DNA of 64,000 nucleotides from a phage. The stretch lies in the NCBI GenBank assembly GCA_038314665.1, contig GCA_038314665.1_3677.1. One strand, given 5' to 3'. The position numbers and the translations under genes are program-made. Positions within the stretch are counted from its first letter, which is position 1. Each line of letters begins with the position of its first letter. Below the pieces are notes generated by a model, which was not told the origin of the DNA, searched no databases, and was given only the letters and a program-made list of their open reading frames with translations. Shown one piece after another: positions 9,074-54,608 of this stretch.

Positions 9074-9140
9074 TACAACAAGTTGCACGATCAGGGGGCA
9101 ATAAAGCCCCTTGATCACATAAAAATTATGCTATCCTTGG

Positions 9141-9169
9141 TTGACAAGGATCGGCAGTTTTGCTATATT
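9141..9169 (+). promoter_or_regulatory. sigma70-like promoter (TTGACA-N17-TATATT)
   Basis: upstream of the CDS at 9219. Confidence 0.6.
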
Positions 9170-9218
9170 CTTTTTTGAAGGGAAGTTGTAAGAAAATTAA
9201 CTAAGAGGTAAAAACACC

Positions 9219-9638: not shown

Positions 9639-9656
9639 TTTCTTAACTAAACTATC

Positions 9657-9685
9657 AGGGGCTTTAAAAGGCCCCTTTCTTTTTG
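9657..9685 (+). terminator. rho-independent terminator
   Basis: GGGGC-TTTAAAAG-GCCCC hairpin followed by TTTCTTTTTG. Confidence 0.7.
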
Positions 9686-10292: not shown

Positions 10293-10483
10293 AAGGCAAC
10301 TATGCAAACGAATGGCATGGCGCGACGGAGTCGCGACATAATATAAAAGCAGTAACCATCACCCCCGTGATAGTTTGTCTGCAATCTATTAATCAGATCA
10401 TAGTTGCCTTGTATTTAGTTAATCATGACATAACAAGCAAGGCAACTATAGATCTGCTAATAGTTGCCCTGCTTTTATATTAT
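10293..10483. repeat. nested inverted-repeat / hairpin cluster
   Basis: GGCAACTAT and ATAGTTGCC alternate four times; 15-bp inverted repeat ATAATATAAAAGCAG / CTGCTTTTATATTAT; palindromes CGCGAC..GTCGCG and GTGACTAAAGGTCAC; flanked by 20-bp direct repeats ATGCAAACGAATGGCATGGC (10303) and ATGCAAACGAATGTCATGGC (10609). Confidence 0.6.
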
Positions 10484-10629
10484 GTCATAGAAACACCCGA
10501 AGGGGTGACTAAAGGTCACCTGGCATAGCCAGTGAAAGATTATTAACCTGCTAATTGTCAGCTTATTGGCTGTTAGCTTGTCAATTGTTAACTTGTTAAT
10601 TGTTATCATGCAAACGAATGTCATGGCTT

Positions 10630-10800
10630 ATCATTTTTGTGTAAACAGTCAATCATGTAAATGATAAGTATGTGAACAGTTATCCATGTAAACTATTAGA
10701 TATGTAAACTATCGGTTATGTAAACAGTAAGAGCGTGAACAGTAAAGGGAGTGAATAGTAATAGCGTGAATAGTGACAGCGTAAACAGTCAGGCATGTCA
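10630..10800. repeat. tandem degenerate short repeats (ATGTAAAC / GTGAACAGT / GTGAATAGT units)
   Basis: at least ten units, roughly 11-14 bp period, visible by eye; non-coding. Confidence 0.6.
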
Positions 10801-11363
10801 ATTATGTTTAATGTGCCCAGTATGTCAAAGGTGTCATGTTATGTCACTATTGTGTCAGACAAGTTTTTCTCCTCTTTGTCAAGTGCTGCATGAAAAATTT
10901 ACAATCTGGTATGGTAGCATTTTTGCGGCCCTGTTTACATTCAGTTGTGTATGTATAATCCTTGTTGTGCGGGCGTTTGGACGTCTAGATGGTTGGAAGT
11001 CTGCAGGTCAATATCTAATCTATCGGCTGTTAACTATATCCCACACAAATAGTAAGAAATATAATTGTTATATGCGTAAACAGTAACTCATGTTATCAAT
11101 CCCTGTATGTATCGCCAGTGGTGCGCATAATGGGTATTATGTTAAATTGCCCGTAATGATAACTATTCTCACAATGATAGGTATTCTCATTCAATCCCAC
11201 AAGATAGGTTGCAAATGTTGTGCCACTGTGTGAACGGCCTCACCTATTAATTTGCCACACTGCCCCGATATTTGAGAATTGTTATAAGAATGAGAAGTAT
11301 TCCCATTTCGTCCGCCTGGCAGCACTCCAGTCGCTACCGCTTATGACAGGGCAGAGCTAGACC

Positions 11364-11512
11364 CTCTTCAGATATTTCTGGCTGACTCTTCAGGTCTGTG
11401 TGGGAAAAGCCAATCTCTCCGGCGGCGGGGAGGGGGTCAATTAAAAAATTTATGTGGTGTATGAAGCGCTCTTCAGGTAAGGCATGTATTATGGGATGAA
11501 ACCCTCTTCAGG
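11364..11512. repeat. cluster of CTCTTCAGG motifs
   Basis: copies at 11364, 11386, 11469 and 11504, with further copies at 11894 and 12544; interleaved G-rich GGCGGGGAGGGGGT (11421) and CCCGGCGGGGCAGGGG (11566). Confidence 0.5.
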
Positions 11513-12253
11513 TGATGATATTTGTGGGTGTGATATTTGCTGGAAAGTCAGATATGACGGGACTCCCGGCGGGGCAGGGGTAGTACAGACAGGGAAAATA
11601 TGGGGATGTAGTTGGGGAAATTGATCAGACAGGTGGAGTATAGTATATGTTACAAGTATGTTAAATAGAGAGGTTTAATATCTGTAAGATTTGTGTGTAA
11701 AATCAAAGACTTAAGTGGTGTTGTGGTATTTTCTATAAATAATTCAAGTTTAATAGGGAATATTTGTCAGAAAGGCAGGTTCAGGTTATTTAAAGTGGTA
11801 TTTCAGATGCATGTTTACAGAAGCAGGTAACCCCCCTCCCCCTTCGGCTACCATTCACCTTTTCCTCTGACTGGTACTTAAACACTTATTCAGACTCTTC
11901 AGGTTATCACCCATATATCATATGGCAGTGACTGGTGTCCTCCGGCCCCTCTTTCGTCACCCGTCCGCTTCGCCATGCTAATGCCATAGCCAGTGGTTCG
12001 GTTGTTCACCCTGTTCACTCAGGTGTATCTCCATACCCCTTCAAACCGAAGAGAACAGAAAACCCGAATTACTCGGTAAAAGAAAAGAGAAGAACTTAAT
12101 TTTATCAGGATAGGCAAGAATGTCAAGGCATGACTGCTCACTAAACAAGCAAACAGTCATGTGTGGGAGGTAAGTGATTGTGGTGGTAGGAAATTTAGTT
12201 GAAAGATGTGTTATGGGTGCTCCCAGCACTTTAGCCGGGCAATTAATTGTGTG

Positions 12254-12469
12254 TCAGTCCAGTGGTTCATCCCCTACTTCACTGAAATCGATGTTCATGG
12301 TCTCCTCCCAACCATCAATCTCAGCACCAGAGTAGAGATCTTTAGGACTTACTCCCAAAGCCTCAGCAACAGAGTCCATATTTAACACCTCTGGCAGGTA
12401 TGATTCATCGAATTCAAGGTAAATCAGGCCACGAGTGTTGTCAGCTCCACCAAATATTTCTATCTTCAT
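12254..12469 (-). CDS. hypothetical small acidic protein (71 aa)
   Basis: last ORF of the minus-strand array; acidic C-terminus. Confidence 0.5.
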   Translation of the reverse strand: MKIEIFGGADNTRGLIYLEFDESYLPEVLNMDSVAEALGVSPKDLYSGAEIDGWEETMNIDFSEVGDEPLD

Positions 12470-12590
12470 GAAATCTCCTCTGGAAATGAGAGTGTGAACA
12501 GGGTTTTATACGTCCCAATGCACAGGAATTATGCACGTTTGCCTCTTCAGGCCATGCTTTAGCATGAGGAACCTGTGTGGGCTCGGTGCT

Positions 12591-12896
12591 TCATAGTCTA
12601 CCACCCCTGAACTCTTCGTGCTCAGGCATAATAGAGAACCAGATAACTACGATGTCTTCCCACGTTAGGTCATCAGCCTCAGGATCTACCTGGAGTGAAG
12701 ATGGAGAATCTTCAGAATCGAAGTTTTCCTCTTGCACTGGCTCAGTCAAGGGACATACAGTCACTCCTTTGGATGTCTCTTCAGATGCATGTGTGTTTAT
12801 CATGTTCCACCCGTGAGTATTCCGGCAACAGCCGCTATGGACATAATGATCATCAGGATCACCACAAAAACCTCTGACAATGTTCTCATTGTGCAC
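12591..12896 (-). CDS. hypothetical acidic protein (101 aa)
   Basis: ORF only; start uncertain. Confidence 0.3.
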   Translation of the reverse strand: MHNENIVRGFCGDPDDHYVHSGCCRNTHGWNMINTHASEETSKGVTVCPLTEPVQEENFDSEDSPSSLQVDPEADDLTWEDIVVIWFSIMPEHEEFRGGRL

Positions 12897-13162
12897 TCCA
12901 TATTCTTCAGACTATGTGTGGATACTATCACTGGAGCGGTAATGTGTCAACAGAAACGCCGCGAGGGTTTGGTTAAAATCCGAGCGTATGGTGATTTGGG
13001 TCAAAACGGACGTGCGTTCTCGCTACGCTCGAAATAGAGAGTTGTTTGTAGAAAGCTCTTAAACGCTCTGTAATGAGATTATCTGTCCAAGGTATGCAAT
13101 CGTGCACCAGATAAAGAAAAGGACGCCACAGAGCGTCCTAGGTGTCTTAAATTTGATATTTT

Positions 13163-13474
13163 CTATACCCATGAGGGCTTATCAAGGTTGGAGTAGCTGA
13201 AAGGTGTCAAAAGGTGACTGTCAAAATCCCTCAAACTATCCAAATCTTTTTCCTCGTCCTGACACCATCTGTGCCTACATTTATTGTTGTAGTGCATGGA
13301 ATGCATAGCGTTCTGCAACTTAACAGGCACAAGTGATTCAGGAGTAGATAGTATTGCAGGGTATGCCAGAACCACCTCAAACAGTGGAAACACATCGAAA
13401 CTAAAGTCTACCTCTGCAGAGGTTGATGGCATGTAGGAGTATTTAGCCGCCTTTGTAGACATAATCCACCTCAC
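13163..13474 (-). CDS. hypothetical protein (103 aa)
   Basis: ORF overlapping the upstream stop. Confidence 0.4.
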   Translation of the reverse strand: MRWIMSTKAAKYSYMPSTSAEVDFSFDVFPLFEVVLAYPAILSTPESLVPVKLQNAMHSMHYNNKCRHRWCQDEEKDLDSLRDFDSHLLTPFSYSNLDKPSWV

Positions 13475-13797
13475 ACAGGTTTGATAATACCTTTACCGAA
13501 TAATTCTTCGTATCTAATCTTATCCGGATCCCACTCCTGGATAATTTCGAAGACAATATCCAACCCAGGGATAATCACTTCTCCAGTGTCAAGTTTGGCA
13601 AGAACAAAACCAGAAGGCTGAATGGTTTCCCAGTTGCGACGATTGGAATAGAAGACCTCGAAAATATCACCGACCTTGATCTGTTGATCAAGATGTTCAA
13701 GATTCTCTTTCATATAGACGCAGCGGATTTTTCGTGCAGGCCATAGACCACCTGCATCACGTTCATTCAATTCTTTTACAGTGATCGGCATACCCAT
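13471..13797 (-). CDS. hypothetical protein (108 aa)
   Basis: ORF with RBS; no domain recognised. Confidence 0.5.
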   Translation of the reverse strand: MGMPITVKELNERDAGGLWPARKIRCVYMKENLEHLDQQIKVGDIFEVFYSNRRNWETIQPSGFVLAKLDTGEVIIPGLDIVFEIIQEWDPDKIRYEELFGKGIIKPV

Positions 13798-13850
13798 CTC
13801 AAGTCTCCTTCATAGATAGTAAAAAGAGGGGCCCAAGCCCCTCTTTGTCA

Positions 13851-14156
13851 TTATTCTACAGAGCGTTTGAACAGAATGTCTGCCTCAGACATGTGCTCAA
13901 CCTCTTCTTCGATTTTAGCTCGACGTTTTTCCGCCTCATAGCGAATATCGAACTCGGTAGCCACCAGAGATTTGATGAATTTAGGAGAATACAGATGATC
14001 CTGCTTCTCAACGAGAATGATATCCTTAATGGCATCTTTCAGATCTTTAATCTGAAGTTGGAGTTCCACCAGTTCTTCGATTGTTTTGCGAAGGCGATCA
14101 CGCTCTGCAGTGTCAGAAGGAAGAGAGGTGAACAGTTCAACTTTAGATTTAGCCAT
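13851..14156 (-). CDS. hypothetical coiled-coil protein (101 aa)
   Basis: AAGGAGA RBS; heptad-like EELVELQLQIKDLKDAIKD. Confidence 0.55.
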   Translation of the reverse strand: MAKSKVELFTSLPSDTAERDRLRKTIEELVELQLQIKDLKDAIKDIILVEKQDHLYSPKFIKSLVATEFDIRYEAEKRRAKIEEEVEHMSEADILFKRSVE

Positions 14157-14184
14157 AGTAAGAGTCTCCTTATGTTGTTTTAAA

Positions 14185-14436
14185 TTAACGTTCTACAAAA
14201 ATACCGTTCAGTTCAATAACCAGGAATTTCTGGTCTTCACTATCGTCTCGTGCCAGCACCTCACAGACGTATCGGTCATCTCCATCATCATCGCAGTCAA
14301 ATACAAGACTGAGGACTTTATCATGATAAACCTTCGCCACTACCGCCTCGTAAGTATTGCCGATTGTGAATCCAAGATAATCTCCAATGCATTTGACAAC
14401 AACATGATCGCCAGCATTCAAGTCAATCTTCGTCAT
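14185..14436 (-). CDS. hypothetical acidic protein (83 aa)
   Basis: start taken at the internal ATG (MTKIDLNAG...) which has an AAGGAGCG RBS; ORF track extends to 14502. Confidence 0.5.
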   Translation of the reverse strand: MTKIDLNAGDHVVVKCIGDYLGFTIGNTYEAVVAKVYHDKVLSLVFDCDDDGDDRYVCEVLARDDSEDQKFLVIELNGIFVER

Positions 14437-14591
14437 TACTGCGCTCCTTGGGTAATAATACTGTATGTAAAACTTTAACCAGAGATGTGAATAACGCCCC
14501 AAAACACACCGATAGCGCTAAAACAGACAAGGCCATCATTAAAGCTTCAGTAAAATCAGTCACTCCTCACCTCTTGTTAGTCACTATACTG

Positions 14592-14855
14592 TCATTTATC
14601 CTTGCCGTCAAGAACTTTTTTAAATCTTTCAGGGATATCGCCTGTTCTTAGATAGCTCATGACCTCACAAGGTTCCCACTTGAATTTCTTACAAAGCAGG
14701 GCGGCTGAGATTGTTTCATTGCGAAAAGAAAGGATATTAATATCCCATTCTGAGAACCCCAACTTCCGAAGGGTAGCTACAGAAATCCTCACCGCAACCC
14801 AGCAGCAAAAACATGCAACAAACGCCACTGCTATAACCCACATCAGGATGTTCAT
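14592..14855 (-). CDS. small membrane protein (87 aa)
   Basis: N-terminal TM helix ILMWVIAVAFVACFCCWVAV. Confidence 0.5.
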   Translation of the reverse strand: MNILMWVIAVAFVACFCCWVAVRISVATLRKLGFSEWDINILSFRNETISAALLCKKFKWEPCEVMSYLRTGDIPERFKKVLDGKDK

Positions 14856-14944
14856 ACAAGCACCTCACTGAAATACAAGACACAGTGTTAAGGTTACAGA
14901 CCAGCAAATAATTAACAGTGCCGTTGCAACCTTGGCAAGATTTA

Positions 14945-15232
14945 TCATAGTGCCTCTAAGATTTCATATCCTTCGGGTCGGAATACAAGCCACTCCGTGG
15001 ATCCGTTTGGTCGATACGCTTTATACAGAACAACCTGATCTCGGCACATGCACATAGCTACATAGTTTTCATCCACACCTGCAGCCTGCATTGCAGCTTC
15101 TTCTCCGGCAACTGCTTTGCTTACAACCTCCTTAGTAGGCAGGTGTGCGATCAGCTCGTCACCATCATTAATTCCAAAATGGCTGAGTTCTCCATTGGTA
15201 TCTTTAATCTTAATCTTAACCAGATCTTTCAT
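14945..15232 (-). CDS. hypothetical small acidic protein (95 aa)
   Basis: overlapping stop/start with neighbours. Confidence 0.55.
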   Translation of the reverse strand: MKDLVKIKIKDTNGELSHFGINDGDELIAHLPTKEVVSKAVAGEEAAMQAAGVDENYVAMCMCRDQVVLYKAYRPNGSTEWLVFRPEGYEILEAL

Positions 15233-15561
15233 TAGTCTTCCTCCAGGTTCAAAGGCCCTAAGATTTCATATGCCAGATTAGAAGTTACCAAAGGATCTTC
15301 TGCATCTTTAGTATTGTACCACCCATGAATAACCAGGGTCCCACTTTGTTTCATGTCCAACTGGAACTCTTCTGCCGTTTCCTCATCCAGCTCCAAGATT
15401 TCCATAAGGTATTTGATGTTAGGAAGGTATGCAGCTGTTACAGTTCCCTCCACCAAACCTTCGGGCCAACCTACATCCGGATGACAAGTAGGAACCAAGT
15501 TGGTCAGCTTAATGGTGTACGCTTTTTCTGCACGAGCTTTCAGTAACTGGTCAATCTTCAT
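15232..15561 (-). CDS. hypothetical small acidic protein (109 aa)
   Basis: translationally coupled ORF. Confidence 0.55.
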   Translation of the reverse strand: MKIDQLLKARAEKAYTIKLTNLVPTCHPDVGWPEGLVEGTVTAAYLPNIKYLMEILELDEETAEEFQLDMKQSGTLVIHGWYNTKDAEDPLVTSNLAYEILGPLNLEED

Positions 15562-15911
15562 TATTCGTCCTCCTCTTCGGTGCCTGCTTCCAGTAATAAG
15601 TTAAGAATATCTTCTGCACAAGGCTCATAAAACTCTTGGCCTTCATTATCGATGATTTTGTAGTCATCTCCACGAATAATCAGGGGATCACTCTCAAAAT
15701 TATCAAGACCTTTAACAACGACAACACGATCGATTGCCATCATTGTAAGAACTTTATCGACATCTTCCTCTGCTACACCGTACTGCAGCAGAATGTCTTT
15801 GGTAGGAGGAACAGCATCCACCACAACACCGTTACCAAAACCTTCCGGAAGATTAGCTAAAATATCTTCCGGAACCACATTAACATCAAAACCAGTAATT
15901 TCTACTTTCAT
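15561..15911 (-). CDS. hypothetical small acidic protein (116 aa), C-terminal EEEDE tail
   Basis: translationally coupled ORF. Confidence 0.55.
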   Translation of the reverse strand: MKVEITGFDVNVVPEDILANLPEGFGNGVVVDAVPPTKDILLQYGVAEEDVDKVLTMMAIDRVVVVKGLDNFESDPLIIRGDDYKIIDNEGQEFYEPCAEDILNLLLEAGTEEEDE

Positions 15912-16172
15912 TTACAGCACCTCTTCGTCAACTACTTCATAAAAATGGCCTGGGATTGCAATAGCGTTCTCACCTTCACCTACAAACACAGTTCCGTCAA
16001 GAATCAACATCATAAGAATTTCTGGAATATCCTCTTCCGGAACGTTGCCAAAACCTTTAATCAGCTTGTAGGTTGGAAGATTTACCTCTAAGATGTCACC
16101 ATCTTTAGAGCGGAAATCAACACCATCCTGAATCTCTGCCATTTCAAGGTTTTTCAGTTTAATCTTCATCAA
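15912..16172 (-). CDS. hypothetical small acidic protein (86 aa)
   Basis: ORF with RBS. Confidence 0.55.
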   Translation of the reverse strand: MMKIKLKNLEMAEIQDGVDFRSKDGDILEVNLPTYKLIKGFGNVPEEDIPEILMMLILDGTVFVGEGENAIAIPGHFYEVVDEEVL

Positions 16173-16248
16173 TCAGTCTCCTGTCTTGTTAAGATGAAGG
16201 TATTATTTCACACAGGGTTGGTGTTGTCAACACCTGTGTGCAAGAAAA

Positions 16249-16644
16249 TTACTGAAACAGTGCGGATAAATTACCTTCTGGTGGGAACTTATCTGCCAAA
16301 AACGGTGTTAGCACAGTAGCCTTCTGAAGATCTGGGGTCCACTCGTTGTTCAGAACATCCCAGTAGTACGCAATGTTGCTGTGTGGGTGCCGCATTACGA
16401 ACTTTTTCCCTTCGTAATCATCTGAAACCTCTACAGAAGAAATAACAACAGAATCTTCAAGGGTTTCTTCATAGAAAGATCCGCCTTCAAATTTCCAACG
16501 AGATGCAAGAGCTCCTGCCTTGAACGCTGCAGATAAAGGACTGTCGGCAAGAACATACATTTCTTGCACTCTGTCGCTGCGATCTTTGCTTCTTACGTTG
16601 TATACAGTATCTGAGCTATACTCGACACGGTATAGGCTTATCAT
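16249..16644 (-). CDS. hypothetical protein, paralog family B (131 aa)
   Basis: shares FVMRHPHS..YYW....WTP with the ORF at 18457-18855. Confidence 0.55.
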   Translation of the reverse strand: MISLYRVEYSSDTVYNVRSKDRSDRVQEMYVLADSPLSAAFKAGALASRWKFEGGSFYEETLEDSVVISSVEVSDDYEGKKFVMRHPHSNIAYYWDVLNNEWTPDLQKATVLTPFLADKFPPEGNLSALFQ

Positions 16645-16976
16645 TACCGCACCTCCTCAATAACTTCCACATCTGAACCAACAACAAATGCAAAAGGACA
16701 GGTTTCATGAAAGACATCCGGATCGCCGCCAAGCTTGCTAACAATTTCTCCACCATTAATAAACACAAGCTCACCAATATTCATCAGATTGCTGAAATAG
16801 TATCCATAATGATTAAAGAATGCAGCGGGGTCAGGTAGACTAGTGGCCTCAAGTTCTACATCGGTTGAGATTACTTTCTTATCATAACCTCTCGCCTTCT
16901 GAGATGCAAGATCTGCAGAATCTTCAGGCGACCGGAGATGCACAGGAATTGTTTCACCAATAAAGCGTACTTTCAT
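16644..16976 (-). CDS. hypothetical protein (110 aa)
   Basis: start taken at the ATG (MKVRFIG...) 4 nt after the upstream stop; ORF track uses a TTG at 17003. Confidence 0.5.
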   Translation of the reverse strand: MKVRFIGETIPVHLRSPEDSADLASQKARGYDKKVISTDVELEATSLPDPAAFFNHYGYYFSNLMNIGELVFINGGEIVSKLGGDPDVFHETCPFAFVVGSDVEVIEEVR

Positions 16977-16980
16977 ATTA

Positions 16981-17244
16981 TCACCCAACAACCATAGCTT
17001 CAAAAGGGGTCATGAACGAATAAACGGCATCATCATCTGCTTCAGGGAATGCTCCCAAAGACTTCATGTCTGAGCCCTTGACAAATACAAGGTTTTGATC
17101 AAAAGCTTCTTGGGGGTCAATCCGATACATATTTCGTAGAATATCACCTACCTCTTCATCAAGAGGTGAGTATGCTGTGCACGTTTTTCCGATCAAGCTT
17201 TGAGAATCAGGGTATCCACCTGAAGTTTTAAAATAAACAATCAT
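16981..17244 (-). CDS. hypothetical small acidic protein (87 aa)
   Basis: ORF only. Confidence 0.5.
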   Translation of the reverse strand: MIVYFKTSGGYPDSQSLIGKTCTAYSPLDEEVGDILRNMYRIDPQEAFDQNLVFVKGSDMKSLGAFPEADDDAVYSFMTPFEAMVVG

Positions 17245-17338
17245 ATAGTATCACCTCTGGTAAGAGATTGGGATTCCTTTCCCACAAATAATTACAAACT
17301 TCTCTTTTTATTGAGGAAGCATGCTAATCCAAGCAGGA

Positions 17339-17608
17339 TTACTCTTCTACAATCTCATACACATCAGGGGTTACAATCAACTCTTCTCCGTTACCCGGTG
17401 CAACAAACACCACCATGCCTTCAGGTGTGTGCTTTTTAGCCATCTCGATAACATCTTCTCGCAGAGCTGGTTCCATCAGATCAAAACCTTCACCCAAGGC
17501 ATCACGAACTACCTTCATGTAGTCTACTGGTTGTGCTTCAACGATCATGCCTTCAACCAGTCCACAGTTTTTGTCTGCCAGCTCGGTTTTGAATAATTTA
17601 ATTTTCAT
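17339..17608 (-). CDS. hypothetical small acidic protein (89 aa)
   Basis: ORF with GGAGACC RBS; C-terminal EIVEE. Confidence 0.55.
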   Translation of the reverse strand: MKIKLFKTELADKNCGLVEGMIVEAQPVDYMKVVRDALGEGFDLMEPALREDVIEMAKKHTPEGMVVFVAPGNGEELIVTPDVYEIVEE

Positions 17609-17745
17609 TTAGAGGTCTCCTCAATTATTTGATATTAATAGCCGTAACCTAACACATTAACTACAACTGCGATTGCAAACATAATTTCAAAGCATGCAAT
17701 CTCTACACTTGGGACTAATTTCTTAATCACGCCCATTGTAGCACC

Positions 17746-18063
17746 TCATTCTCCAAAGTCAATCTTTACTTTTCCTTTCCCTTTACCTTTCTTTCCACCG
17801 CATTTAGCCAGTTGACGTGCTGCAACATCTACCATACGGTCAGTTGCCTCGTAAGCATCACTGCCTTTAGCCTTGGCAATAACTTCTTTTCCAGAATTGT
17901 CAAAAATGAACGCCATAACTTCCTGGTGATCATTTTCAACTTTTACACTCACACGTGCATAGTTGGCAGAGGGGTGCAAACGCTCCAGCTTGGACATTTT
18001 GTGGGAAATGAAAGACACCATACCTTCAGTGATTTCTACGTTGCCAGTGATTTCAATTTGCAT
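17746..18063 (-). CDS. hpf: ribosome hibernation promoting factor / RaiA (YfiA) family homolog with Lys/Gly-rich C-terminal tail (105 aa)
   Basis: MQIEITGNVEITEGM...KLERL...ARVSVKVE...AKAKGSDAYEATDRMVDVAARQLAK matches the HPF/YhbH pattern MQLNITGxNVEITEAL..F..KLE..V.LKVEK...A.G.DMYAAID.L.DKL.RQL.K, recalled from memory. Confidence 0.7.
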   Translation of the reverse strand: MQIEITGNVEITEGMVSFISHKMSKLERLHPSANYARVSVKVENDHQEVMAFIFDNSGKEVIAKAKGSDAYEATDRMVDVAARQLAKCGGKKGKGKGKVKIDFGE

Positions 18064-18148
18064 AACGTGCTCCTTTTAAGGAAGAGAGTAACAACCATCT
18101 CTCTTTGAAAACAATAATACTACAGCTGAAGCATTGTGTCAACAGTTT

Positions 18149-18439
18149 TTACAGATTGTTGTCGATAGTATTTAAAATATCTACAGCAAGATCTGCCATT
18201 TTTCGAACATACTCTGCAAACTCAACAGGATCCTTGATCAAAGAATTCACAGGGTCGTACCCTAGAGCGTTCAAAATGGCTGCAGCATCTACAACCTTTT
18301 CATCGTTTGCAGAGATCTCTCCGTCAAACTTATATGTCCATTTTGAGTCAATCTTGGCAGGGCATGGTTTGTCTATGCTTGTTACACCATCGTCTTTAAC
18401 CTCTCCTGCGTTATCAATATTCAGAACTAAATCCATCAT
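18149..18439 (-). CDS. hypothetical acidic protein (96 aa)
   Basis: ORF with RBS. Confidence 0.5.
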   Translation of the reverse strand: MMDLVLNIDNAGEVKDDGVTSIDKPCPAKIDSKWTYKFDGEISANDEKVVDAAAILNALGYDPVNSLIKDPVEFAEYVRKMADLAVDILNTIDNNL

Positions 18440-18456
18440 AGTGGAACCTCACTGTT

Positions 18457-18855
18457 TCAGTTTAGCTTTTCTTCAACAACCCCATAGCTCGGGGCAGAGT
18501 CAAGAGCTTTTTGGTTTAAAAGTGGTGTAGCAGAATCTGCAAACGGTGTCCAAGTTTTTGTTCTGGCATTCCAATAATGCTTCACTCTGGAATCTGGATG
18601 CACTATAACAAAAACTTTTTCACTTGTCAACACATTAATCTCTTCTACACCCTTGCTGATAATTTCTCCGTCATAGCCCCCAGTCTGGTATCCTTCGTAC
18701 CAGGTTCTTGCATAGGCATAGCCAGCCTGCCAGCATGCAGCCTCCTCCGAGGTGGAGACTACGTAGAAGTGTTTCTCAAATTCTGGGATACGCCCTTGCT
18801 TTACGCTCCAAGCTCCGCGAATTTTCATTGTAACTTTGAACAGTTTATTTTTCAC
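18457..18855 (-). CDS. hypothetical protein, paralog family B (132 aa)
   Basis: FVIVHPDSRVKHYWNARTKTWTP aligns with the ORF at 16249-16644. Confidence 0.55.
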   Translation of the reverse strand: MKNKLFKVTMKIRGAWSVKQGRIPEFEKHFYVVSTSEEAACWQAGYAYARTWYEGYQTGGYDGEIISKGVEEINVLTSEKVFVIVHPDSRVKHYWNARTKTWTPFADSATPLLNQKALDSAPSYGVVEEKLN

Positions 18856-18867
18856 AACGGTTACCCA

Positions 18868-19122
18868 TCACAGCTCTACAATATCTGCATCTGACCCTGC
18901 CCCAAAGGCATAATATGAGTCCTCTCCGAAATAATACTCCGGGGCACCAGCCGCGATCAGGTCTGATCCCAAGATGAACACCACATTGTGGCCTACATAG
19001 CTGTGATTTTGCCGCACAGGATCATCCCACGGCAACCCTTCGAAGTATACAGCAGGTACTACCTTTCCTTTCAGGAAGGATTGTCCCAAGTAGACATTAG
19101 AATCAAGAATTTTAACCTTCAT
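18868..19122 (-). CDS. hypothetical protein, paralog family A (84 aa)
   Basis: MKVKILD...Y.GQ..L.GKV...DLIAAGA shared with the ORFs at 19112 and 22765. Confidence 0.55.
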   Translation of the reverse strand: MKVKILDSNVYLGQSFLKGKVVPAVYFEGLPWDDPVRQNHSYVGHNVVFILGSDLIAAGAPEYYFGEDSYYAFGAGSDADIVEL

Positions 19123-19339
19123 GATCGTCCTCCACTATCTCTACATCCTCACCTAGGGCAAAGTTGTAGGTCCACTGACTGTCAAAGCATTCCTGAGATG
19201 CACCAGCGGCAATAAGATCTGCCCCTTTTATTTTTAAAAGGTCAGGGTAATCTTCGTTAGGGACAGCAGTAAACACTTTCCCTACTAAAGGCTCCTGACC
19301 AATATAGAAGCTTGAATCTAAAACTTTAACTTTCATCAA
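19112..19339 (-). CDS. hypothetical protein, paralog family A (75 aa)
   Basis: MMKVKVLDSSFYIGQEPLVGKV...GADLIAAGA; overlaps the downstream start. Confidence 0.55.
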   Translation of the reverse strand: MMKVKVLDSSFYIGQEPLVGKVFTAVPNEDYPDLLKIKGADLIAAGASQECFDSQWTYNFALGEDVEIVEDDHEG

Positions 19340-19623
19340 CGGTCTCCATCAGGTGGTTGTGGGACGTAAACACTGTTACGAATATCGTCCGCAGTATAGT
19401 AATAAGTGTCTCCAACCCTATCTCTGGCTGCAATGTACTCTGCTATACCAATAAGTGCCATTGATTTGGTGGCGTATCTTCCCAACTCGTTAGCTCCCCA
19501 ATAGAATTTAGACCAATAGGGAATAAGACCGAACAAATATACCTTTTGACGAACTTCCCAGTAAGTGCCTTTCCCGACAAGTTTAAACTCGACTTCACCA
19601 CTGTTAATCTTTTTCATTATCAA
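19336..19623 (-). CDS. hypothetical protein (95 aa)
   Basis: ATGA-coupled ORF. Confidence 0.5.
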   Translation of the reverse strand: MIMKKINSGEVEFKLVGKGTYWEVRQKVYLFGLIPYWSKFYWGANELGRYATKSMALIGIAEYIAARDRVGDTYYYTADDIRNSVYVPQPPDGDR

Positions 19624-19916
19624 TCTCCCTCCACCGTGGTCGGATTGTCAGTAAGAAATTGAGCATTAGCTGGAGGCACACCTGACATTTTCCACACAAC
19701 CATAAGTTTGTAACCAGGCACTCTATTAAGTGCAGATCGAGTAGAGTTTGTGCACGTATACTTTCGCTTTCCAAACCCGTTCTCCATCATAATCCAGTAC
19801 CCAGTATCTTTGTCACCAGGTATTGGTAGACCACCTTCATCAACCCACTGAATGGACCACGGCACGATGGCTACAGCTTTATATTTAAACTTTTTAAACC
19901 ACTCAAAAAGTTTCAT
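19620..19916 (-). CDS. hypothetical protein (98 aa)
   Basis: ATGA-coupled ORF. Confidence 0.5.
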   Translation of the reverse strand: MKLFEWFKKFKYKAVAIVPWSIQWVDEGGLPIPGDKDTGYWIMMENGFGKRKYTCTNSTRSALNRVPGYKLMVVWKMSGVPPANAQFLTDNPTTVEGD

Positions 19917-20011
19917 AATTCAGCCTCGCATAGACATAATCACTATAAACAGGCAAACAATGAATCCGAATGCCACGCCACCCATAAACGTTAATATTGA
20001 TGCAATCATAG

Positions 20012-20197
20012 TCAATCAGCCTCGCTTGGCAACTCTTCTACCTTAACATGCCGAAAAGTGTTACCGTAATGGTTGATCCATGACATCAGCTCGCTTTCTT
20101 GCTCTTTCTCTGGGATGCACTCTCGAATGCTGACAAGTTTTAAGAAAACCCAATCACAATCTGCACCCATTCTACCAGATAGACAATAGTGCTTCAT
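20012..20197 (-). CDS. hypothetical protein (61 aa)
   Basis: ORF only. Confidence 0.4.
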   Translation of the reverse strand: MKHYCLSGRMGADCDWVFLKLVSIRECIPEKEQESELMSWINHYGNTFRHVKVEELPSEAD

Positions 20198-20215
20198 AAA
20201 ACCCTCTACCTTGGT

Positions 20216-20416
20216 TTAGAATACTGCCTCTTTTAATGATCCAAGGAGCAGTAGGTGTGAAATCTGATCCACATTCATGGTAGATTCAATCTCCTCTTTT
20301 TTGAAAGGTTCTCTGCAAAACAGTACTACATTTGGGTTTTCGCTACGCACTATATAATACAGATCGTTCAAATCATTCTCATAGTAGGTATTAAATTTAA
20401 GAATTTTGTCACTCAT
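20216..20416 (-). CDS. hypothetical protein (66 aa)
   Basis: ORF only. Confidence 0.45.
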   Translation of the reverse strand: MSDKILKFNTYYENDLNDLYYIVRSENPNVVLFCREPFKKEEIESTMNVDQISHLLLLGSLKEAVF

Positions 20417-20700
20417 TTTTTGGTCCTCTTCTTAGATTTTTGGGAAGAAACGCTTTCTGCAATACGAGACAAACGTTCTTCTGAAGCCTTACCTATCCCA
20501 GGTTTTTTGAGTGGATTATCTTTATGACCACAATCCAGCTGGATATTGGATACCTCTCCAACTTTGTAAGTCAATTCTAGCAAAAGGTTGTCGTCCTTGT
20601 CAAATGTTTTTACGATAAATTTTTTATCGTCCTCCTGAACTTCATACCTGGTACCTGCAGTATACAGCATGGTGCCATCAGCATAGGATATCCAGATCAT
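20413..20700 (-). CDS. hypothetical protein with basic C-terminal tail (95 aa)
   Basis: coupled ORF. Confidence 0.5.
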   Translation of the reverse strand: MIWISYADGTMLYTAGTRYEVQEDDKKFIVKTFDKDDNLLLELTYKVGEVSNIQLDCGHKDNPLKKPGIGKASEERLSRIAESVSSQKSKKRTKK

Positions 20701-21044
20701 TGATCCTCCTTCTGCTGCAACAGCATTAACTCTTTGTTAGAGATCTTTACTGCTGTTTTTATTGTTCCATCTTCACGGAACCACGACCAGAACTCTACAG
20801 TGTCACCACTGTCAAGCAAAGCATGCCCATGGTAAAAATCTTTGTCCTTAGACAGTTTCTCATCTATATCTGCATCAACACATTCGTGATCCATAGCGTT
20901 TTGCCTGAACGCATCGGTTATGCCAATGCACGCCTTGCTCTCAAGACTGGTATATCCGATATCTTTTAATTCAGTTTCCCAAGTCCAGTACCCTATAAAA
21001 GCCACAACAGCTACCCACATTAATATCGATTTAATCTTTGGCAT
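20697..21044 (-). CDS. membrane-anchored or secreted protein (115 aa)
   Basis: N-terminal hydrophobic segment ILMWVAVVAFIGYWTW. Confidence 0.5.
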   Translation of the reverse strand: MPKIKSILMWVAVVAFIGYWTWETELKDIGYTSLESKACIGITDAFRQNAMDHECVDADIDEKLSKDKDFYHGHALLDSGDTVEFWSWFREDGTIKTAVKISNKELMLLQQKEDQ

Positions 21045-21104
21045 TCTCTCTACCTCTTTCTTAGTTTATTTAGTTATGGCACATCCTCTGTGCCTTATTG
21101 CACA

Positions 21105-21566
21105 CTACTTAAACAACAGTTCAAGATAGTGCAAAATTAACAGAAGTTGAATTACGCCCAGCACAACGGCAAGTATGTTAATCTTAGAATCAAAAAACTT
21201 CTTAACTTTTACCCTAAAAGGTTCCTTAATGTCCTTTACGATCCTATCTATAGATGACCTCATATCTCTGATTACCATCCTGAACATTAAAGACGGATGC
21301 TCACTCTCTGTAACGGAATCGAAAACATACTCTCTTCGGTCATAAGGGCCGCCAGCTCTGCGTATTAACCTCTCCACAGATACCTCGAACGTCACACCTG
21401 TAACGTAATCATCTATAACAAGTAGTGACGGATCTTTACTGTCAAGAGGTATCAAAGTTATCTTTCCAGATTTTGTTAAAATTTCTCCTTTTTCAAGCAA
21501 GGTGTACCAATGCTCTCTGCCAAGGCTGTTGAGGCACGTTTTTACATATTTAACAAACATCGTCAC
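21105..21566 (-). CDS. hypothetical protein with C-terminal TM anchor (153 aa)
   Basis: C-terminus ILAVVLGVIQLLLILHYL. Confidence 0.5.
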   Translation of the reverse strand: MTMFVKYVKTCLNSLGREHWYTLLEKGEILTKSGKITLIPLDSKDPSLLVIDDYVTGVTFEVSVERLIRRAGGPYDRREYVFDSVTESEHPSLMFRMVIRDMRSSIDRIVKDIKEPFRVKVKKFFDSKINILAVVLGVIQLLLILHYLELLFK

Positions 21567-21766
21567 CCCTCATCGCACGTCTGATATAACCACTCTATAA
21601 AATCTTGATACCATTCACCCTCTGAGCGCTCCGTAGGCCAATAATCTTCACCCTCTCGTGCATTAAAATCTGAGTATTCAACTTTCCACTCCTTTACCAG
21701 CTCGTGGAGAAGGTTTTCAGCCTGCTCTAAAGATTTATTTTTTACCATTGCTGTCTCCTTTTTCAA
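21563..21766 (-). CDS. hypothetical acidic protein (67 aa)
   Basis: coupled ORF. Confidence 0.45.
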   Translation of the reverse strand: MKKETAMVKNKSLEQAENLLHELVKEWKVEYSDFNAREGEDYWPTERSEGEWYQDFIEWLYQTCDEG

Positions 21767-21967
21767 GATAGTTATACATCAGAACTGCACCACCTAAGAT
21801 GGCTACCAGTAACAATACCCCGGATAGCATTTCAATAAACATGGCTTGAAACACTGGAAGATCTCCCTAAATTAATGCACCATTTTAAATACATGCTCTT
21901 TTCCCATAAAGGTGCCTGGCTAAGATCTGCGTAGAACGCAATCTCTTTAAGAACAGTATAAACAGTT

Positions 21968-22204
21968 TTAGGTGCGGTCTCCATCCCTGCTCTCCTTTTT
22001 CTCCTTACGGGTATTCTTGTAGTAATCAACTAGGCACATTATTACGATGAAGATAACAACAGGCCAAAAAGGTGCAGCAGTGATGATGGTGATAAAATCA
22101 TCAAACTTCACCCTTCGTCTGGACACGATGCATACACCTGTCAAGAATACTGCCGTTATAACGGCTATTACCAGGTAACCTATTAGCGCAACATCTATAC
22201 TCAT
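21968..22204 (-). CDS. small membrane protein, two TM helices (78 aa)
   Basis: hydrophobic segments IGYLVIAVITAVFLTGVCIV and FWPVVIFIVIMCLV. Confidence 0.45.
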   Translation of the reverse strand: MSIDVALIGYLVIAVITAVFLTGVCIVSRRRVKFDDFITIITAAPFWPVVIFIVIMCLVDYYKNTRKEKKESRDGDRT

Positions 22205-22234
22205 TAGTCCTCCCTTTGTAGGTTAAATTATATA

Positions 22235-22768
22235 CTACAGATGGTTGCTGATGGTGTCAAGAAAATTATCTCGTTCTTTCTCGGAGTTTTCACGGGTGTA
22301 GTTGAAAAACATATCTAGAATAACCTTATTGATATATTCCAGCTCCTCTGTGTTCAGGTATTTAGCAGGATCTACAATGACATCCCAAGTCTCATACAGA
22401 CCACACTCATGATACCCCCAACGCTGCTCAATTGTCAAACTGATCGGCAAAGCTTTACCGTCACAAACAACCTTCCATCTGCAAATGCTGGTATCTGGGC
22501 GTACCTGTGCACGGTATACCTGCACAAAATCCAATTTGAATTTGAGATACTCGTCATACAATTTAAGTACAAAGCTCTCGATTTGTGGAGACACTTTTGC
22601 AGAAAACTGTGCGTATTTGTACTTGCACTGGATAATCTTTCTGCGTTTCGCAGTTAAATTTTTTGCAGCCAGTTGTTCTTCAGTATATCTCCATCTACGA
22701 TCAACAAACGCAACAGGGTCTTTGTCCCCATAGAGATCTTCCCAGTTAATAAGAAGCATACCTGTCAC
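22235..22768 (-). CDS. hypothetical protein (177 aa)
   Basis: ORF; no domain recognised. Confidence 0.55.
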   Translation of the reverse strand: MTGMLLINWEDLYGDKDPVAFVDRRWRYTEEQLAAKNLTAKRRKIIQCKYKYAQFSAKVSPQIESFVLKLYDEYLKFKLDFVQVYRAQVRPDTSICRWKVVCDGKALPISLTIEQRWGYHECGLYETWDVIVDPAKYLNTEELEYINKVILDMFFNYTRENSEKERDNFLDTISNHL

Positions 22769-22998
22769 TCCTCCACAACTTCAAGGCCTTTGCCGCCTCG
22801 TTCTGGTAGATTACTTAAAGATAGGTAATATGTATAGTCAGGAGAGATCCTGCCAGACTCTGCACCTGCGGCTAGTAAATCCTTTCCCTTAACCAGGACA
22901 ACATTCTCGTTTGCAGATAGCCGTTTTGCTTCCACAATTTTACCAACGCAGTCAACCAAGGAAGGGTACCCTAAATCTGTAAGAAATTTAACTTTCAT
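22765..22998 (-). CDS. hypothetical protein, paralog family A (77 aa)
   Basis: start taken at the ATG (MKVKFLTDLGY...) preceded by an AGGAGG RBS; ...GKDLLAAGA...EVVEE. Confidence 0.55.
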   Translation of the reverse strand: MKVKFLTDLGYPSLVDCVGKIVEAKRLSANENVVLVKGKDLLAAGAESGRISPDYTYYLSLSNLPERGGKGLEVVEE

Positions 22999-23037
22999 GC
23001 TACCTCCTGCTTCTACCGTCCCTGGCAAGATAAATTA

Positions 23038-23436
23038 TTACTGAACAGAGCGTGGGGCTGGGAAGGATAACTCTTCTAAGGAGAAGATTTCATTTCCTAC
23101 CACCCAAGTTGCTGGATCATCTGGATCAACAGGTTTAATAATCATTACCTCATCCGCCTCGCACACACGTTTCCCACCTGTAGTGTGGTCAGCCACCAGC
23201 ATGCGCGGTTCTTCAGAAATGCACAGGTAGCCTCCTCGGCCCACTGTTCCTTCCACGGGATCCTGCCCTTTGACCACAATGAATACCTTCTCTCCTGTGG
23301 AGATATTACTTTTCACACTAACAGTTTGACCAACTTTAGATGTACCGATCTTGGTGGCTTCAAACATTAAATCCCGAATTACTGTTGCATAGCTGCCGGA
23401 CACTTTCTTACCTTCTTTAGTAATCTCAATCTTCAT
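23038..23436 (-). CDS. hypothetical protein (132 aa)
   Basis: ORF with AAGGAG RBS. Confidence 0.55.
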   Translation of the reverse strand: MKIEITKEGKKVSGSYATVIRDLMFEATKIGTSKVGQTVSVKSNISTGEKVFIVVKGQDPVEGTVGRGGYLCISEEPRMLVADHTTGGKRVCEADEVMIIKPVDPDDPATWVVGNEIFSLEELSFPAPRSVQ

Positions 23437-23708
23437 AATCTAGGCTCCTTAAATGAATCTATGTAATCAATTAAATCCCAAGCATCGCGATGGGCTGTCA
23501 GAGGGTATACTTCTCCGAGGGGGATCATAGCAATAAGTCTATCAAAAACCCAGTCTGGACGCAACATTTTATGGTGATATTCCCACTCACCTTCCACAGA
23601 TTTTTTCTGAGTGATCAGGATCTCTGTGTAGTGTTTCGCCTGTCTTGAGTAGATTGAAAATGACTTGTACATAAATGACCCCCTCTTGTTGAAAACAACA
23701 ATACACAA
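23433..23708 (-). CDS. hypothetical protein (91 aa)
   Basis: coupled ORF. Confidence 0.5.
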   Translation of the reverse strand: MCIVVFNKRGSFMYKSFSIYSRQAKHYTEILITQKKSVEGEWEYHHKMLRPDWVFDRLIAMIPLGEVYPLTAHRDAWDLIDYIDSFKEPRL

Positions 23709-24023
23709 CTACCAAGTTACTGTCAAGTAGGCAACCGTATTATTTTTCTCTGGGGAGATGCCAACAACATCTACCTGCAGACCTCCTGCCCTTAAATCTC
23801 CAACAATGTGCGGGAAGTAATCTGAGAGATGCGAGGGTAGATTTATCGAAAATCCGCACCCCAGAAAGCCTGCTAACGCTTTATTTTGTATCTCCCCTAC
23901 AATCGCATCATAAATGGAGTTAAGCTCGTCAGGGAGCGTTACAGGGCGTTTTAGCGCTAGCTGGTGTAATTTGTCCTTAGCACTCATTTTCATTTCAGGT
24001 CTACCTCTGGGGGTGCCAACCAC
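23709..24023 (-). CDS. hypothetical protein (104 aa)
   Basis: ORF only. Confidence 0.45.
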   Translation of the reverse strand: MVGTPRGRPEMKMSAKDKLHQLALKRPVTLPDELNSIYDAIVGEIQNKALAGFLGCGFSINLPSHLSDYFPHIVGDLRAGGLQVDVVGISPEKNNTVAYLTVTW

Positions 24024-54603: not shown

Positions 54604-54608
54604 TTTTT

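Follow-up and report, generated by a model that had tools for sequence, protein, structure and literature searches.

A dense block of small genes in an rV5-like Escherichia coli phage: a probable accessory island with a few host-specific genes

Introduction

What does a phage gain from a dense block of about 40 small genes, nearly all without a recognisable family? Such blocks are the 'dark matter' of large virulent phages, including rV5-like phages that are used against pathogenic E. coli in cocktails for biocontrol and therapy, and knowing which of these small genes decide growth on a clinical strain would serve host-range prediction and engineering. The block treated here lies in a 64,000-nucleotide stretch of phage DNA (contig GCA_038314665.1_3677.1 of NCBI GenBank assembly GCA_038314665.1; the whole stretch is hereafter called the window). 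A preliminary description, made from the sequence alone, had marked positions 12254–23708 as the likeliest site of novel host-interaction or anti-defence activities. Our analysis indicates that this region, in an rV5-like E. coli phage, is probably an island of dispensable accessory genes, organized as several short sigma-70 operons, with a few genes that are host-specifically essential.

The locus is already known: it is present in more than 100 deposited relatives, has been screened by transposon sequencing (Tn-seq), and would be an ordinary accessory small-gene island of a large virulent phage. The general point that a block dispensable on K-12 can hold a few genes decisive on a wild host has been made by that published screen. 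New here are three paralog families, two parallel cassettes, a confident beta-barrel model for one family (family A), and a promoter and terminator architecture that is conserved in a divergent relative. The resulting map adds real genes, operon limits, and paralogs.

Results and Discussion

The phage and its small-gene block

Along its entire length, the block shares 95–97% nucleotide identity with 116 phage records, and the 24–44 kb part of the window matches the same records. Almost all of them are Escherichia phages of the genus Vequintavirus (rV5, FFH2, APECc02, and BASEL Bas48–59); on this identity, which at the genome level is 95–97% to 123 phage records, the window is assigned to a Vequintavirus, an rV5-like E. 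coli myophage. By GC skew and gene map, 12.2–50 kb is a single long minus-strand arm. The block is located at the promoter-distal end of this leftward arm, which bears nucleotide-metabolism genes. The block has genes encoding an N6-adenine methyltransferase and a ClpP-like protease as its right-hand neighbours, and 2.5 kb of non-coding DNA lie to its left.

With starts picked by Shine-Dalgarno (SD) motif and agreement with public annotation, 41 minus-strand open reading frames (ORFs; g1–g41) were called between 12254 and 23672. They encode 29–174 amino acids (aa; median 87 aa), sum to 10.6 kb across an 11.4-kb span, and are acidic (isoelectric point below 5.5) in 25 of the 41 cases. Public annotations (BASEL, RefSeq, and others) of 96%-identical phages list 33–41 coding sequences (CDS) in the block, nearly all 'hypothetical'. 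These counts bear out the dense, single-strand block of about 40 small genes in the preliminary description. Its extent stands up to 23672; the end given as 23708 belongs to a TTG-extended version of g41, which more likely starts at the ATG at 23672 with its GAGG motif. The further statement that nearly all genes have overlapping stop and start codons did not hold, since the 40 junctions comprise 14 overlaps, nine gaps of 0–10 nt, nine of 11–40 nt, and eight of more than 40 nt.

In a Nei-Gojobori comparison with five relatives, the pooled ratio of non-synonymous to synonymous substitution rates (dN/dS) is 0.14 and the majority of genes are at or below 0.2; 39 of the 41 ORFs are real genes under purifying selection. 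In the metagenomic contig L020, a divergent relative with proteins 29–95% identical, 35 of the 41 ORFs are present with their order kept, and such retention despite divergence is strong independent evidence for real genes. Every ORF has an end-to-end match to a phage protein family in PHROGs, and a properly spaced SD motif precedes most credible genes (exceptions include g3, g4, g17, and g23). The remaining two ORFs, g2 and g5, are probably spurious because they have GTG starts, a weak 3-nt SD motif and none, respectively, dN/dS of 2.6 and 6.3, and no L020 match. These two, the weak constraint on g3 and g36, and the conflict among public annotations in 12470–13160 might be taken to mean that the block is mostly non-coding or decaying DNA and its ORFs annotation artefacts. 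Selection, conserved order, SD motifs, and family matches, together with the Tn-seq phenotypes of five orthologs (see below), make this explanation highly improbable and, g2 and g5 excepted, already effectively refute it. The genes of the preliminary description thus stand as a set, less these two.

Host-dependent requirement in phage Bas54

Evidence on requirement comes from the HIDEN-SEQ preprint, which presents saturated transposon libraries of Bas54 (MaxBurger, MZ501093.1) (10.1101/2025.11.20.689424). The bas54_0135–bas54_0168 block is the same locus, with ~94–96% nucleotide identity and the same gene order; the window has a 1.84-kb segment (most of g27 to most of g33) that Bas54 lacks. 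By position and tblastn, bas54_0135–0168 correspond one-to-one to g1–g26 and g34–g41. On K-12, all of these genes are 'non-essential' or 'intermediate' except bas54_0138 (g4), which has too few TA sites to classify (10.1101/2025.11.20.689424). In the comparison of K-12 with the uropathogenic strain CFE311, five genes of the block are significantly depleted (10.1101/2025.11.20.689424), with the following log2 fold changes (log2FC) on CFE311:

bas54_0140, ortholog of g6: log2FC -5.48
bas54_0150, ortholog of g16: log2FC -6.77, adjusted p 0
bas54_0151, ortholog of g17: log2FC -6.17
bas54_0152, ortholog of g18: log2FC -7.16
bas54_0157, ortholog of g23: log2FC -2.14, adjusted p 0

In addition, bas54_0153 (g19) is intermediate on K-12 and has a log2FC of -2.78 on CFE311, which is not significant (10.1101/2025.11.20.689424). 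The window proteins are close to those screened: g6 is 98% identical to bas54_0140 over 99/99 aa with the same flanks (g7 upstream, terminator downstream), and g16, g17, g18, and g23 are 96–99% identical to bas54_0150, 0151, 0152, and 0157.

Phages knocked out for bas54_0140 or for the MoxR ATPase gene bas54_0063 do not overcome DS-28, a predicted defence system of two genes that was tested as a clone (10.1101/2025.11.20.689424). By Bas54 coordinate mapping, bas54_0063 should fall just outside the window. For bas54_0150–0152 (g16–g18), zero reads were obtained on CFE311, while the orthologs of the HPF gene (g21) and g20, upstream in the same promoter unit, are neutral (10.1101/2025.11.20.689424). 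A literature search returned nothing further on DS-28, and two accessory-gene screens without rV5-like phages.

Natural deletions and divergence

Two viable isolates carry large deletions in the block (blastn breakpoints):

19680–21523: Bas54/MaxBurger deletion, most of g27 to most of g33, ~12 nt shared
18543–22362: Bas59/EduardKellenberger deletion, g24–g37 and parts of g23 and g38

The former is nested in the latter, and both junctions share 12–15 nt. Together, these isolates have lost 14 genes outright and have g23 and g38 truncated, the Bas59 junction being a g38'-'g23 fusion (CDS bas59_0152). Relatives also vary in g30, which exists as two alleles, and in the gap of promoter P150, where L020 and a further relative, L009, have an extra gene. 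The g30 of the window is 98% identical to the FFH2 copy and ~70% identical to the copies of MaxTheCat, I29, and JeffSchatz, with flanking genes at 95–100%, which suggests local allelic replacement by recombination.

The genes g6, g16, g23, and g25 are essentially confined to Vequintavirus (117–123 records). An exhaustive HMMER search of 1.84 billion representatives placed g6 in a family of four close clusters and two distant relatives, both of the latter in the same g8-g7-g6 synteny, and searches of 5.8 billion proteins with g6 and g16 found close relatives only. Identity to the L020 orthologs is 33% for g6 and 40% for g16, compared with 64% for g7 and 86% for g8; the divergence of g6 and g16 would fit host-driven diversification. 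An AlphaFold2 (AF2) model of g6 from a 7-sequence alignment is unusable (pLDDT 45.6), and a profile search against PDB sequences was empty. For the gene known through its ortholog to act against DS-28, the family is tiny and evolves fast, and no fold is recognisable.

Promoters, terminators, and operons

The following transcription signals are found in the block:

12922–12950, minus strand: promoter P162 (rV5), sigma-70-type, TTGACA-17-TAGTAT with TG extension, ahead of g4
13120–13139, minus strand: intrinsic terminator after g6, 8-bp stem with 5 GC pairs, T-run
13823–13846: GC-rich hairpin terminator after g8, 10-bp stem, 'Rho-independent terminator' in the rV5 record
14583–14611, minus strand: promoter P156 (rV5), sigma-70-type, TTGACG-17-TATAGT, ahead of g10-g9-g8, at the end of g11
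16202–16230, minus strand: promoter P150 (rV5), sigma-70-type, TTGACA-17-AATAAT with TG extension, ahead of g15
18114–18142, minus strand: promoter P144 (rV5), sigma-70-type, TTGACA-17-TATTAT, ahead of the HPF gene g21

The block is a series of several short operons, with consensus promoters in the gaps before g4 (a 71-nt g5–g4 gap, in the case of P162), g15, and g21 and at the end of g11. All four promoters appear in the promoter table of the rV5 publication, and P150 and P144 also in the rV5 record. Equivalents of P144, P150, and both terminators are kept in L020 despite protein divergence: the position after g6 has a near-identical hairpin, and that after g8 is conserved as well.

The P150 gap is also a site of gene content variation. 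At the position of the window gap 16170–16248, L020 (8092–8388) and L009 (73–369) have an extra 98-aa gene of the Pfam family PF27050 (Phage_P22_Y8K6), downstream of the g16 ortholog and ahead of the g15 ortholog; in L020 it sits right after the P150-equivalent promoter. This extra gene indicates that the gap is an insertion point for morons.

Searches for known families

Only g21 exceeds a Pfam threshold (Ribosomal_S30AE, PF02482), in agreement with the earlier observation that no family apart from HPF could be recognised. PHROGs gives 'unknown function' for all ORFs except g8 ('transcriptional regulator'), g21, and g33 ('virion structural protein'), and nothing was found for the larger proteins in NCBIfam, PADLOC, or PDB sequences. 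Remote homology therefore does not assign routine functions to most of the genes. To this extent the novelty claimed for the block survives; it is partly pre-empted by the more than 100 genomes deposited with this locus and by the existing Tn-seq screen.

Several database labels could not be upheld. The 'putative glycosidase' g38 (BASEL label) has no Pfam, NCBIfam, PADLOC, or PDB sequence match, the labels 'HNH endonuclease' and 'protease La' on block genes in some records have no support, and the resemblance of ORF142 (g23) to a Listeria phage A118 protein noted in the rV5 record was not reproduced (tblastn, E up to 0.01). The label of g33 is inherited from 'possible structural protein' in the rV5 record, and no mention of it was found in the supplementary files of the rV5 paper. 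Since g33 is deleted in viable Bas54 and Bas59, it is not an essential structural component.

The g21 product matches PF02482 at 1.8e-12 (48.3 bits, cutoff 23.7; residues 3–88 on profile positions 1–83/88) and E. coli HPF (PDB 2rql/6h4n) at E 5e-12 to 2.5e-11 (residues 1–89 on 1–89). Judged by this likeness, it is a predicted short HPF and should bind 30S/70S ribosomes. It differs from E. coli HPF/YhbH (PF02482) in being phage-encoded and in having an extra Lys/Gly-rich C-terminal tail, GGKKGKGKGKVK. The g21 ortholog is non-essential in Bas54 (10.1101/2025.11.20.689424), and we found no study of a phage HPF in the literature. The g21 5' leader (18064–18113), ~50 nt from P144 to the SD motif, contains the hairpin CAAAGAGAGATGGTTGTTACTCTCTT, which could be a regulatory element for the block's one translation-related gene.

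The most conserved gene of the block is g8, with 35 synonymous and no non-synonymous changes among the five relatives. It occurs in 225 phage records across Vequintavirinae genera and matches phrog_639 at E 1e-21. Its homologs adjoin DNA ligase in a Mydovirus and in a Serratia phage, and RNase H is also nearby in the latter. One of seven homologs matches Phage_DsbA (PF11126) at E 2.6e-4; against GapR_DNA-bd (cutoff 22.6), the score of g8 itself is 14 bits, and the GapR hit in the PDB is at E 0.3, so that no curated threshold is reached. It is probably a conserved DsbA/GapR-like protein that binds double-stranded DNA, with family membership not established. Like T4 DsbA (PF11126, a late-transcription enhancer that binds double-stranded DNA) and GapR/UPF0335 (PF10073), to which its matches are weak, g8 is helical and ~100 aa long; unlike their members, it stays below the curated threshold, and its DNA binding is a prediction.

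Paralog families and a duplicated cassette

All-against-all and iterative profile searches defined three paralog families. Family A comprises g17, g18, g24, g25, and g39 (the last three in phrog_5009), and family C comprises g16 and g23 (blastp 2.8e-10, both phrog_7379). In family B, g14 and g15 are solid members and g12, g13, and g19 are borderline. A single superfamily of 'MK[IV]K...YE[IV]VEE' acidic proteins was rejected, as families A and B are unrelated (hhalign probability 1%).

In transcription order, the arrangement A-A-C occurs twice, as g25-g24-g23 and as g18-g17-g16. Both C genes follow two A genes in 97 of 2,000,000 permutations, in a test that was devised after the pattern had been seen. 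The g18-g17-g16 copy, with junctions of 4 and -1 nt, is retained in L020, from which g23 is absent, and the strongest unexplained Tn-seq phenotype falls on this one copy of the duplicated cassette. We tentatively suggest that g18-g17-g16 may be a three-protein module (two family A beta-barrels and one family C protein) directed against some barrier or defence system of CFE311. The g25-g24-g23 cassette would then be a diverged duplicate with partly retained activity, because only the g23 ortholog is depleted on CFE311. If true, g18-g17-g16 would be a new multi-component counter-defence or host-range system from Vequintavirus-only families. The repeated order, the retention of the trio in L020, and its zero reads next to neutral upstream genes of the same promoter unit support this module; possible polarity onto g16, the post hoc permutation test, and the single occurrence of family A genes in prophages count against it. 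As to the last point, g39 is 48% identical to a lambdoid E. coli prophage gene between antiterminator Q and holin, and lambdoid prophages have a single g39-like gene in this Q-to-holin slot, a classic moron slot. No family C neighbour was found when these prophage loci were searched for an obligate A-C partnership.

Alternatively, the depletion of g16–g18 and g23 on CFE311 may reflect a host-range or physiological need unrelated to immunity (capsule, O-antigen, envelope, or metabolism), or polarity with only g16 mattering. Tail-fibre genes and a DNA helicase gene are also conditionally essential on CFE311, so this strain and K-12 differ beyond defence systems. Moreover, the preprint does not discuss bas54_0150–0152 and ties only bas54_0063 and bas54_0140 to the cloned defence system (10.1101/2025.11.20.689424), and tight coupling such as that of g18-g17-g16 is the setting where polarity is likeliest. 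Against this, the neutral insertions in the HPF and g20 orthologs argue against long-range polarity, the authors of the preprint argue that polarity is generally weak, and a direct envelope role is unlikely for g16–g18 and g23, which look cytoplasmic, being small and acidic with no transmembrane (TM) segment. We consider this alternative doubtful.

For family A, the AF2 model of g18 (37-sequence alignment; pLDDT 96.6, pTM 0.85) is a small beta-barrel with a helical insert, for which the SH3-like small beta-barrels (SH3, PsaE, KOW, and OapB) would be the closest known candidates. Foldseek found no match to this model in the PDB, and every structural neighbour of the model among viral proteins is a small, uncharacterised phage protein, so the fold gives a class and no function.

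Counter-defence, host takeover, or both

In the mechanism that we propose for an accessory island, the unmodified RNA polymerase of the host would transcribe the block early. Most of the encoded proteins, which would be small, mostly acidic, and single-domain, would bind host proteins stoichiometrically, either defence components or takeover targets, and the three paralog families may have arisen by local duplication followed by divergence under host pressure. In the published Bas54 data, the g6 ortholog counteracts the predicted two-gene system DS-28, and growth on CFE311 requires the orthologs of g18, g17, and g16 and, to a lesser degree, that of g23. The products of g21 (HPF) and g8 (DsbA/GapR-like) would have probable housekeeping-like roles inside the island.

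Comparable clusters occur in T4 (early 'dark matter' ORFs), T5 (pre-early region), and T7 (class I), which likewise have dense small, mostly acidic ORFs with host-type promoters. Genes in those clusters are dispensable singly in the laboratory, lineage-restricted, and enriched in takeover and anti-defence functions, and include small membrane proteins. Unlike them, the present block is placed distally on a long transcription arm, not at the injected end; its early timing is a prediction, and it shares no sequence homology with them save the remote link between g8 and T4 DsbA. In T4, T5, and T7, takeover is classically the work of small acidic early proteins, and the present block may accordingly serve mainly host takeover (shut-off of transcription, translation, division, or the nucleoid, as by T4 and T5 early genes), with the host-specific phenotypes as exceptions. 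The only recognisable products would target central machinery (HPF the ribosomes, the DsbA/GapR-like protein DNA), and most orthologs are neutral both on CFE311 and on K-12. Yet loss of takeover factors often costs fitness, and almost every ortholog can carry insertions, at a large share of its TA sites. In addition, the best-documented phenotype of the block is counter-defence (g6 ortholog), and the genus-restricted, fast-diverging g6 and g16 fit an arms race better. Takeover as the main role is possible, though we would not expect it, and the two readings are not mutually exclusive.

Several points weigh against an early, host-directed accessory island. We infer early expression from promoter sequence only, our literature search found no transcriptome of any Vequintavirus, and the rV5 authors note sigma-70-like promoters over the whole genome, so promoters alone do not mark genes as 'early'. 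The Tn-seq phenotypes come from Bas54, not from the window phage, and from a preprint that is not peer-reviewed. In its Extended Data Table 8 (10.1101/2025.11.20.689424), the sheet before 'Data S7 resampling_K-12_vs_CFE311', where K-12 vs CFE303 is expected, holds row-for-row identical numbers in the copy used, and no CFE303 figures could be taken from it. Insertions in the g17 and g18 orthologs could owe their depletion to polarity on g16. About 34 of the 39 genes have no phenotype, which makes 'binds host proteins' an extrapolation from gene size, charge, and context. The gene g8, perhaps with the whole g10-g9-g8 operon, in which the five relatives show no non-synonymous changes, behaves like a core rather than an accessory function, and two of the four genes flagged as encoding membrane proteins (g32 and g33) are deleted in viable Bas54. 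The expectation that host-interaction or anti-defence activities would most likely sit in this block is thus supported for a minority of genes, namely g6 against DS-28 and g16–g18 and g23 on CFE311 (Bas54 data), and this support does not extend to the ~34 genes without phenotype or to the core-like g8.

Membrane proteins

A credible hydrophobic segment is present in nine ORFs: g11, g32, g33, g37, and the 29–46-aa peptides g4, g10, g20, g28, and g35. The first four (at 14592, 20697, 21105, and 21968) had been described as membrane or tail-anchored proteins. All four do have such a segment, and tail anchoring applies to g33 alone: the segment is N-terminal in g11, N-terminal and weaker in g32, and C-terminal in g33, and g37 has two. 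Superinfection exclusion is carried out by small membrane proteins in T4 (Imm, Sp) and T5 (Llp), which raises the question of whether g11, g32, g33, g37, and the five mini-TM peptides are exclusion or lysis-timing factors. Their TM segments and their dispensability in single infection, as expected of exclusion factors, speak for such a role. None of the nine has homology to known exclusion or holin/antiholin families, however, and g32 and g33 are lost in Bas54, and g28, g32, g33, g35, and g37 in Bas59, with no obvious penalty; several records also label g33 'virion structural protein', a label that is unverified. We regard an exclusion or lysis role as unlikely.

Gene catalogue

The ORFs are as follows, with percentages referring to amino acid identity:

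12254–12469, minus: g1, 71 aa, acidic; phrog_12108; ATG with AGGAG; dN/dS 0.24; orthologs 60–86% identical in L020 and L009; bas54_0135 ortholog non-essential
12506–12604, minus: g2, 32-aa GTG ORF; dN/dS 2.56 (1 synonymous, 9 non-synonymous); probably not a gene; no counterpart in L020 or L009
12591–12803, minus: g3, 70 aa, acidic; phrog_16356; dN/dS 0.44; status uncertain; not detected in L020 or L009; rV5 and FFH2 annotations of the locus differ
12800–12901, minus: g4, 33-aa single-TM peptide; best 17-aa hydropathy window 2.98; first gene after P162; 52–56% identical in L020 and L009
12973–13107, minus: g5, 44-aa GTG ORF between the g6 terminator and P162; dN/dS 6.3 (1 synonymous, 22 non-synonymous); probably not a gene
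13163–13462, minus: g6, 99 aa; ortholog of bas54_0140, the published counter-defence gene against DS-28
13471–13797, minus: g7, 108 aa; phrog_12418; dN/dS 0.06; 8-nt gap to g6, co-transcribed; g8-g7-g6 order retained in L009 and L020
13851–14156, minus: g8, 101 aa; phrog_639; probable DsbA/GapR-like protein
14185–14436, minus: g9, 83 aa, acidic; phrog_12851; 24 synonymous, 0 non-synonymous changes
14423–14563, minus: g10, 46-aa single-TM peptide (hydropathy); bas54_0144 ortholog 'intermediate'; 41–50% identical in L020 and L009
14592–14855, minus: g11, 87 aa; N-terminal TM anchor (hydropathy 2.59, residues 6–22) and basic soluble domain; 'putative membrane protein' in the phage I29 annotation
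14945–15232, minus: g12, 95 aa, acidic; borderline family B (E 1.4e-3 to g14/g15 profile); dN/dS 0.09
15232–15561, minus: g13, 109 aa, acidic; borderline family B (E 9e-3 to g14/g15 profile); dN/dS 0.05
15561–15911, minus: g14, 116 aa, acidic; family B (g14/g15 phmmer E 3.5e-5); fastest-diverging gene, 29% identity with L020 ortholog
15912–16169, minus: g15, 85 aa, acidic; family B; the gene next downstream of P150
16249–16644, minus: g16, 131 aa; family C; closes the g18-g17-g16 cassette; phrog_7379; confined to Vequintavirus, 119 records
16644–16976, minus: g17, 110 aa; family A with long insert; E 1.4e-5 to g24/g25/g39 profile
16981–17244, minus: g18, 87 aa; family A; modelled small beta-barrel with helical insert
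17339–17608, minus: g19, 89 aa, acidic; dN/dS 0.03; family B borderline
17635–17736, minus: g20, 33-aa hydrophobic peptide (hydropathy); phrog_15151
17746–18063, minus: g21, 105 aa; short-form HPF homolog; Lys/Gly-rich tail
18149–18439, minus: g22, 96 aa, acidic; dN/dS 0.26; residues 25–96 resemble g38 residues 105–174 (blastp 2e-4), the C-terminal 70 aa being alike
18457–18828, minus: g23, 123 aa; family C, paralogous to g16; closes the g25-g24-g23 cassette; phrog_7379; absent from its slot in L020, truncated in Bas59
18868–19122, minus: g24, 84 aa; family A; g24/g25 blastp 4.8e-15; phrog_5009
19112–19336, minus: g25, 74 aa; family A, minimal version; phrog_5009 at 1e-38
19336–19617, minus: g26, 93 aa, basic; phrog_12340; 82% identical in L020
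19620–19916, minus: g27, 98 aa, basic; phrog_8932; mostly deleted in Bas54
19920–20009, minus: g28, 29-aa hydrophobic peptide (hydropathy); annotated in BASEL records
20012–20197, minus: g29, 61 aa; phrog_2381; 87% identical in L020
20216–20416, minus: g30, 66 aa; two alleles in the genus; 95% identical in L020
20413–20700, minus: g31, 95 aa, basic C-terminal tail; phrog_11938
20697–21044, minus: g32, 115 aa; N-terminal signal-anchor-like segment (17 uncharged residues, positions 6–22, hydropathy 1.64–1.76) and 90-aa acidic domain with two Cys; 'putative membrane protein' in I29
21105–21560, minus: g33, 151 aa; tail-anchored, C-terminal TM residues 127–146; phrog_7821; 171 records including Klebsiella, Salmonella, and Cronobacter phages at ~30% identity
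21563–21748, minus: g34, 61 aa, acidic; phrog_8789; dN/dS 0.06
21735–21842, minus: g35, 35-aa single-TM peptide (hydropathy); 13 synonymous, 0 non-synonymous changes
21832–21984, minus: g36, 50 aa; weakly constrained, dN/dS 0.76; 39% identical in L020
21968–22204, minus: g37, 78 aa; two-TM hairpin and basic C-terminal tail; 33% identical in L020
22235–22759, minus: g38, 174 aa, largest ORF; ortholog non-essential
22765–22998, minus: g39, 77 aa; family A; phrog_5009; closest to lambdoid E. coli prophage copies
23038–23436, minus: g40, 132 aa; phrog_5748; dN/dS 0.20
23433–23672, minus: g41, 79 aa; phrog_7526; ATG with GAGG motif

Adjacent regions and database records

The non-coding region to the left of the block (9742–12253; 31–37% GC) contains an iteron-like array at 10641–11084, with eight of the nine exact GTRAAYAGT motifs of the window, all on one strand. 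Seven of these are packed into 150 nt at spacings of ~15, 31, and 48 nt, and an 18-nt perfect inverted repeat is present at 10335–10352 and 10469–10486. From these repeats, the region looks like a replication origin. The HIDEN-SEQ authors recovered zero transposon insertions in the Bas54 equivalent of 9742–12253 (10.1101/2025.11.20.689424), which a replication origin there would explain. Just downstream of g1, at window 12126..12064, a minus-strand consensus promoter (TTGACA-16-TAAAAT with TG extension) points into this region, and ~25 nt beyond it comes a hairpin with a T-run. L020 retains the promoter as well as the hairpin (12317–12382), and the two could yield a very short transcript, for example a primer RNA or small RNA; an Rfam scan of 9000–24000 gave no match.

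Approximately 18–21 unannotated MG0656xx records named 'Campylobacter phage' (C5, C15, A12a, and others; host C. jejuni) are 96% identical over the whole block, and several are fragmentary (e.g., 35 or 75 kb), which suggests mislabelling or contamination. Elsewhere in the window, six tRNA-like genes (Arg, Ser, Thr, Met, Pro) are clustered at 53909–54848; one call at 54505–54603 is 99 nt long with a four-base anticodon loop, 'atcc', that is not assignable. Finally, g42 (23709–23993) lies right beside the block, and its ortholog bas54_0169, classed 'intermediate' with a mean of 1.8 reads on K-12 and 42% of TA sites hit, is the nearest to essential among the genes of this neighbourhood.

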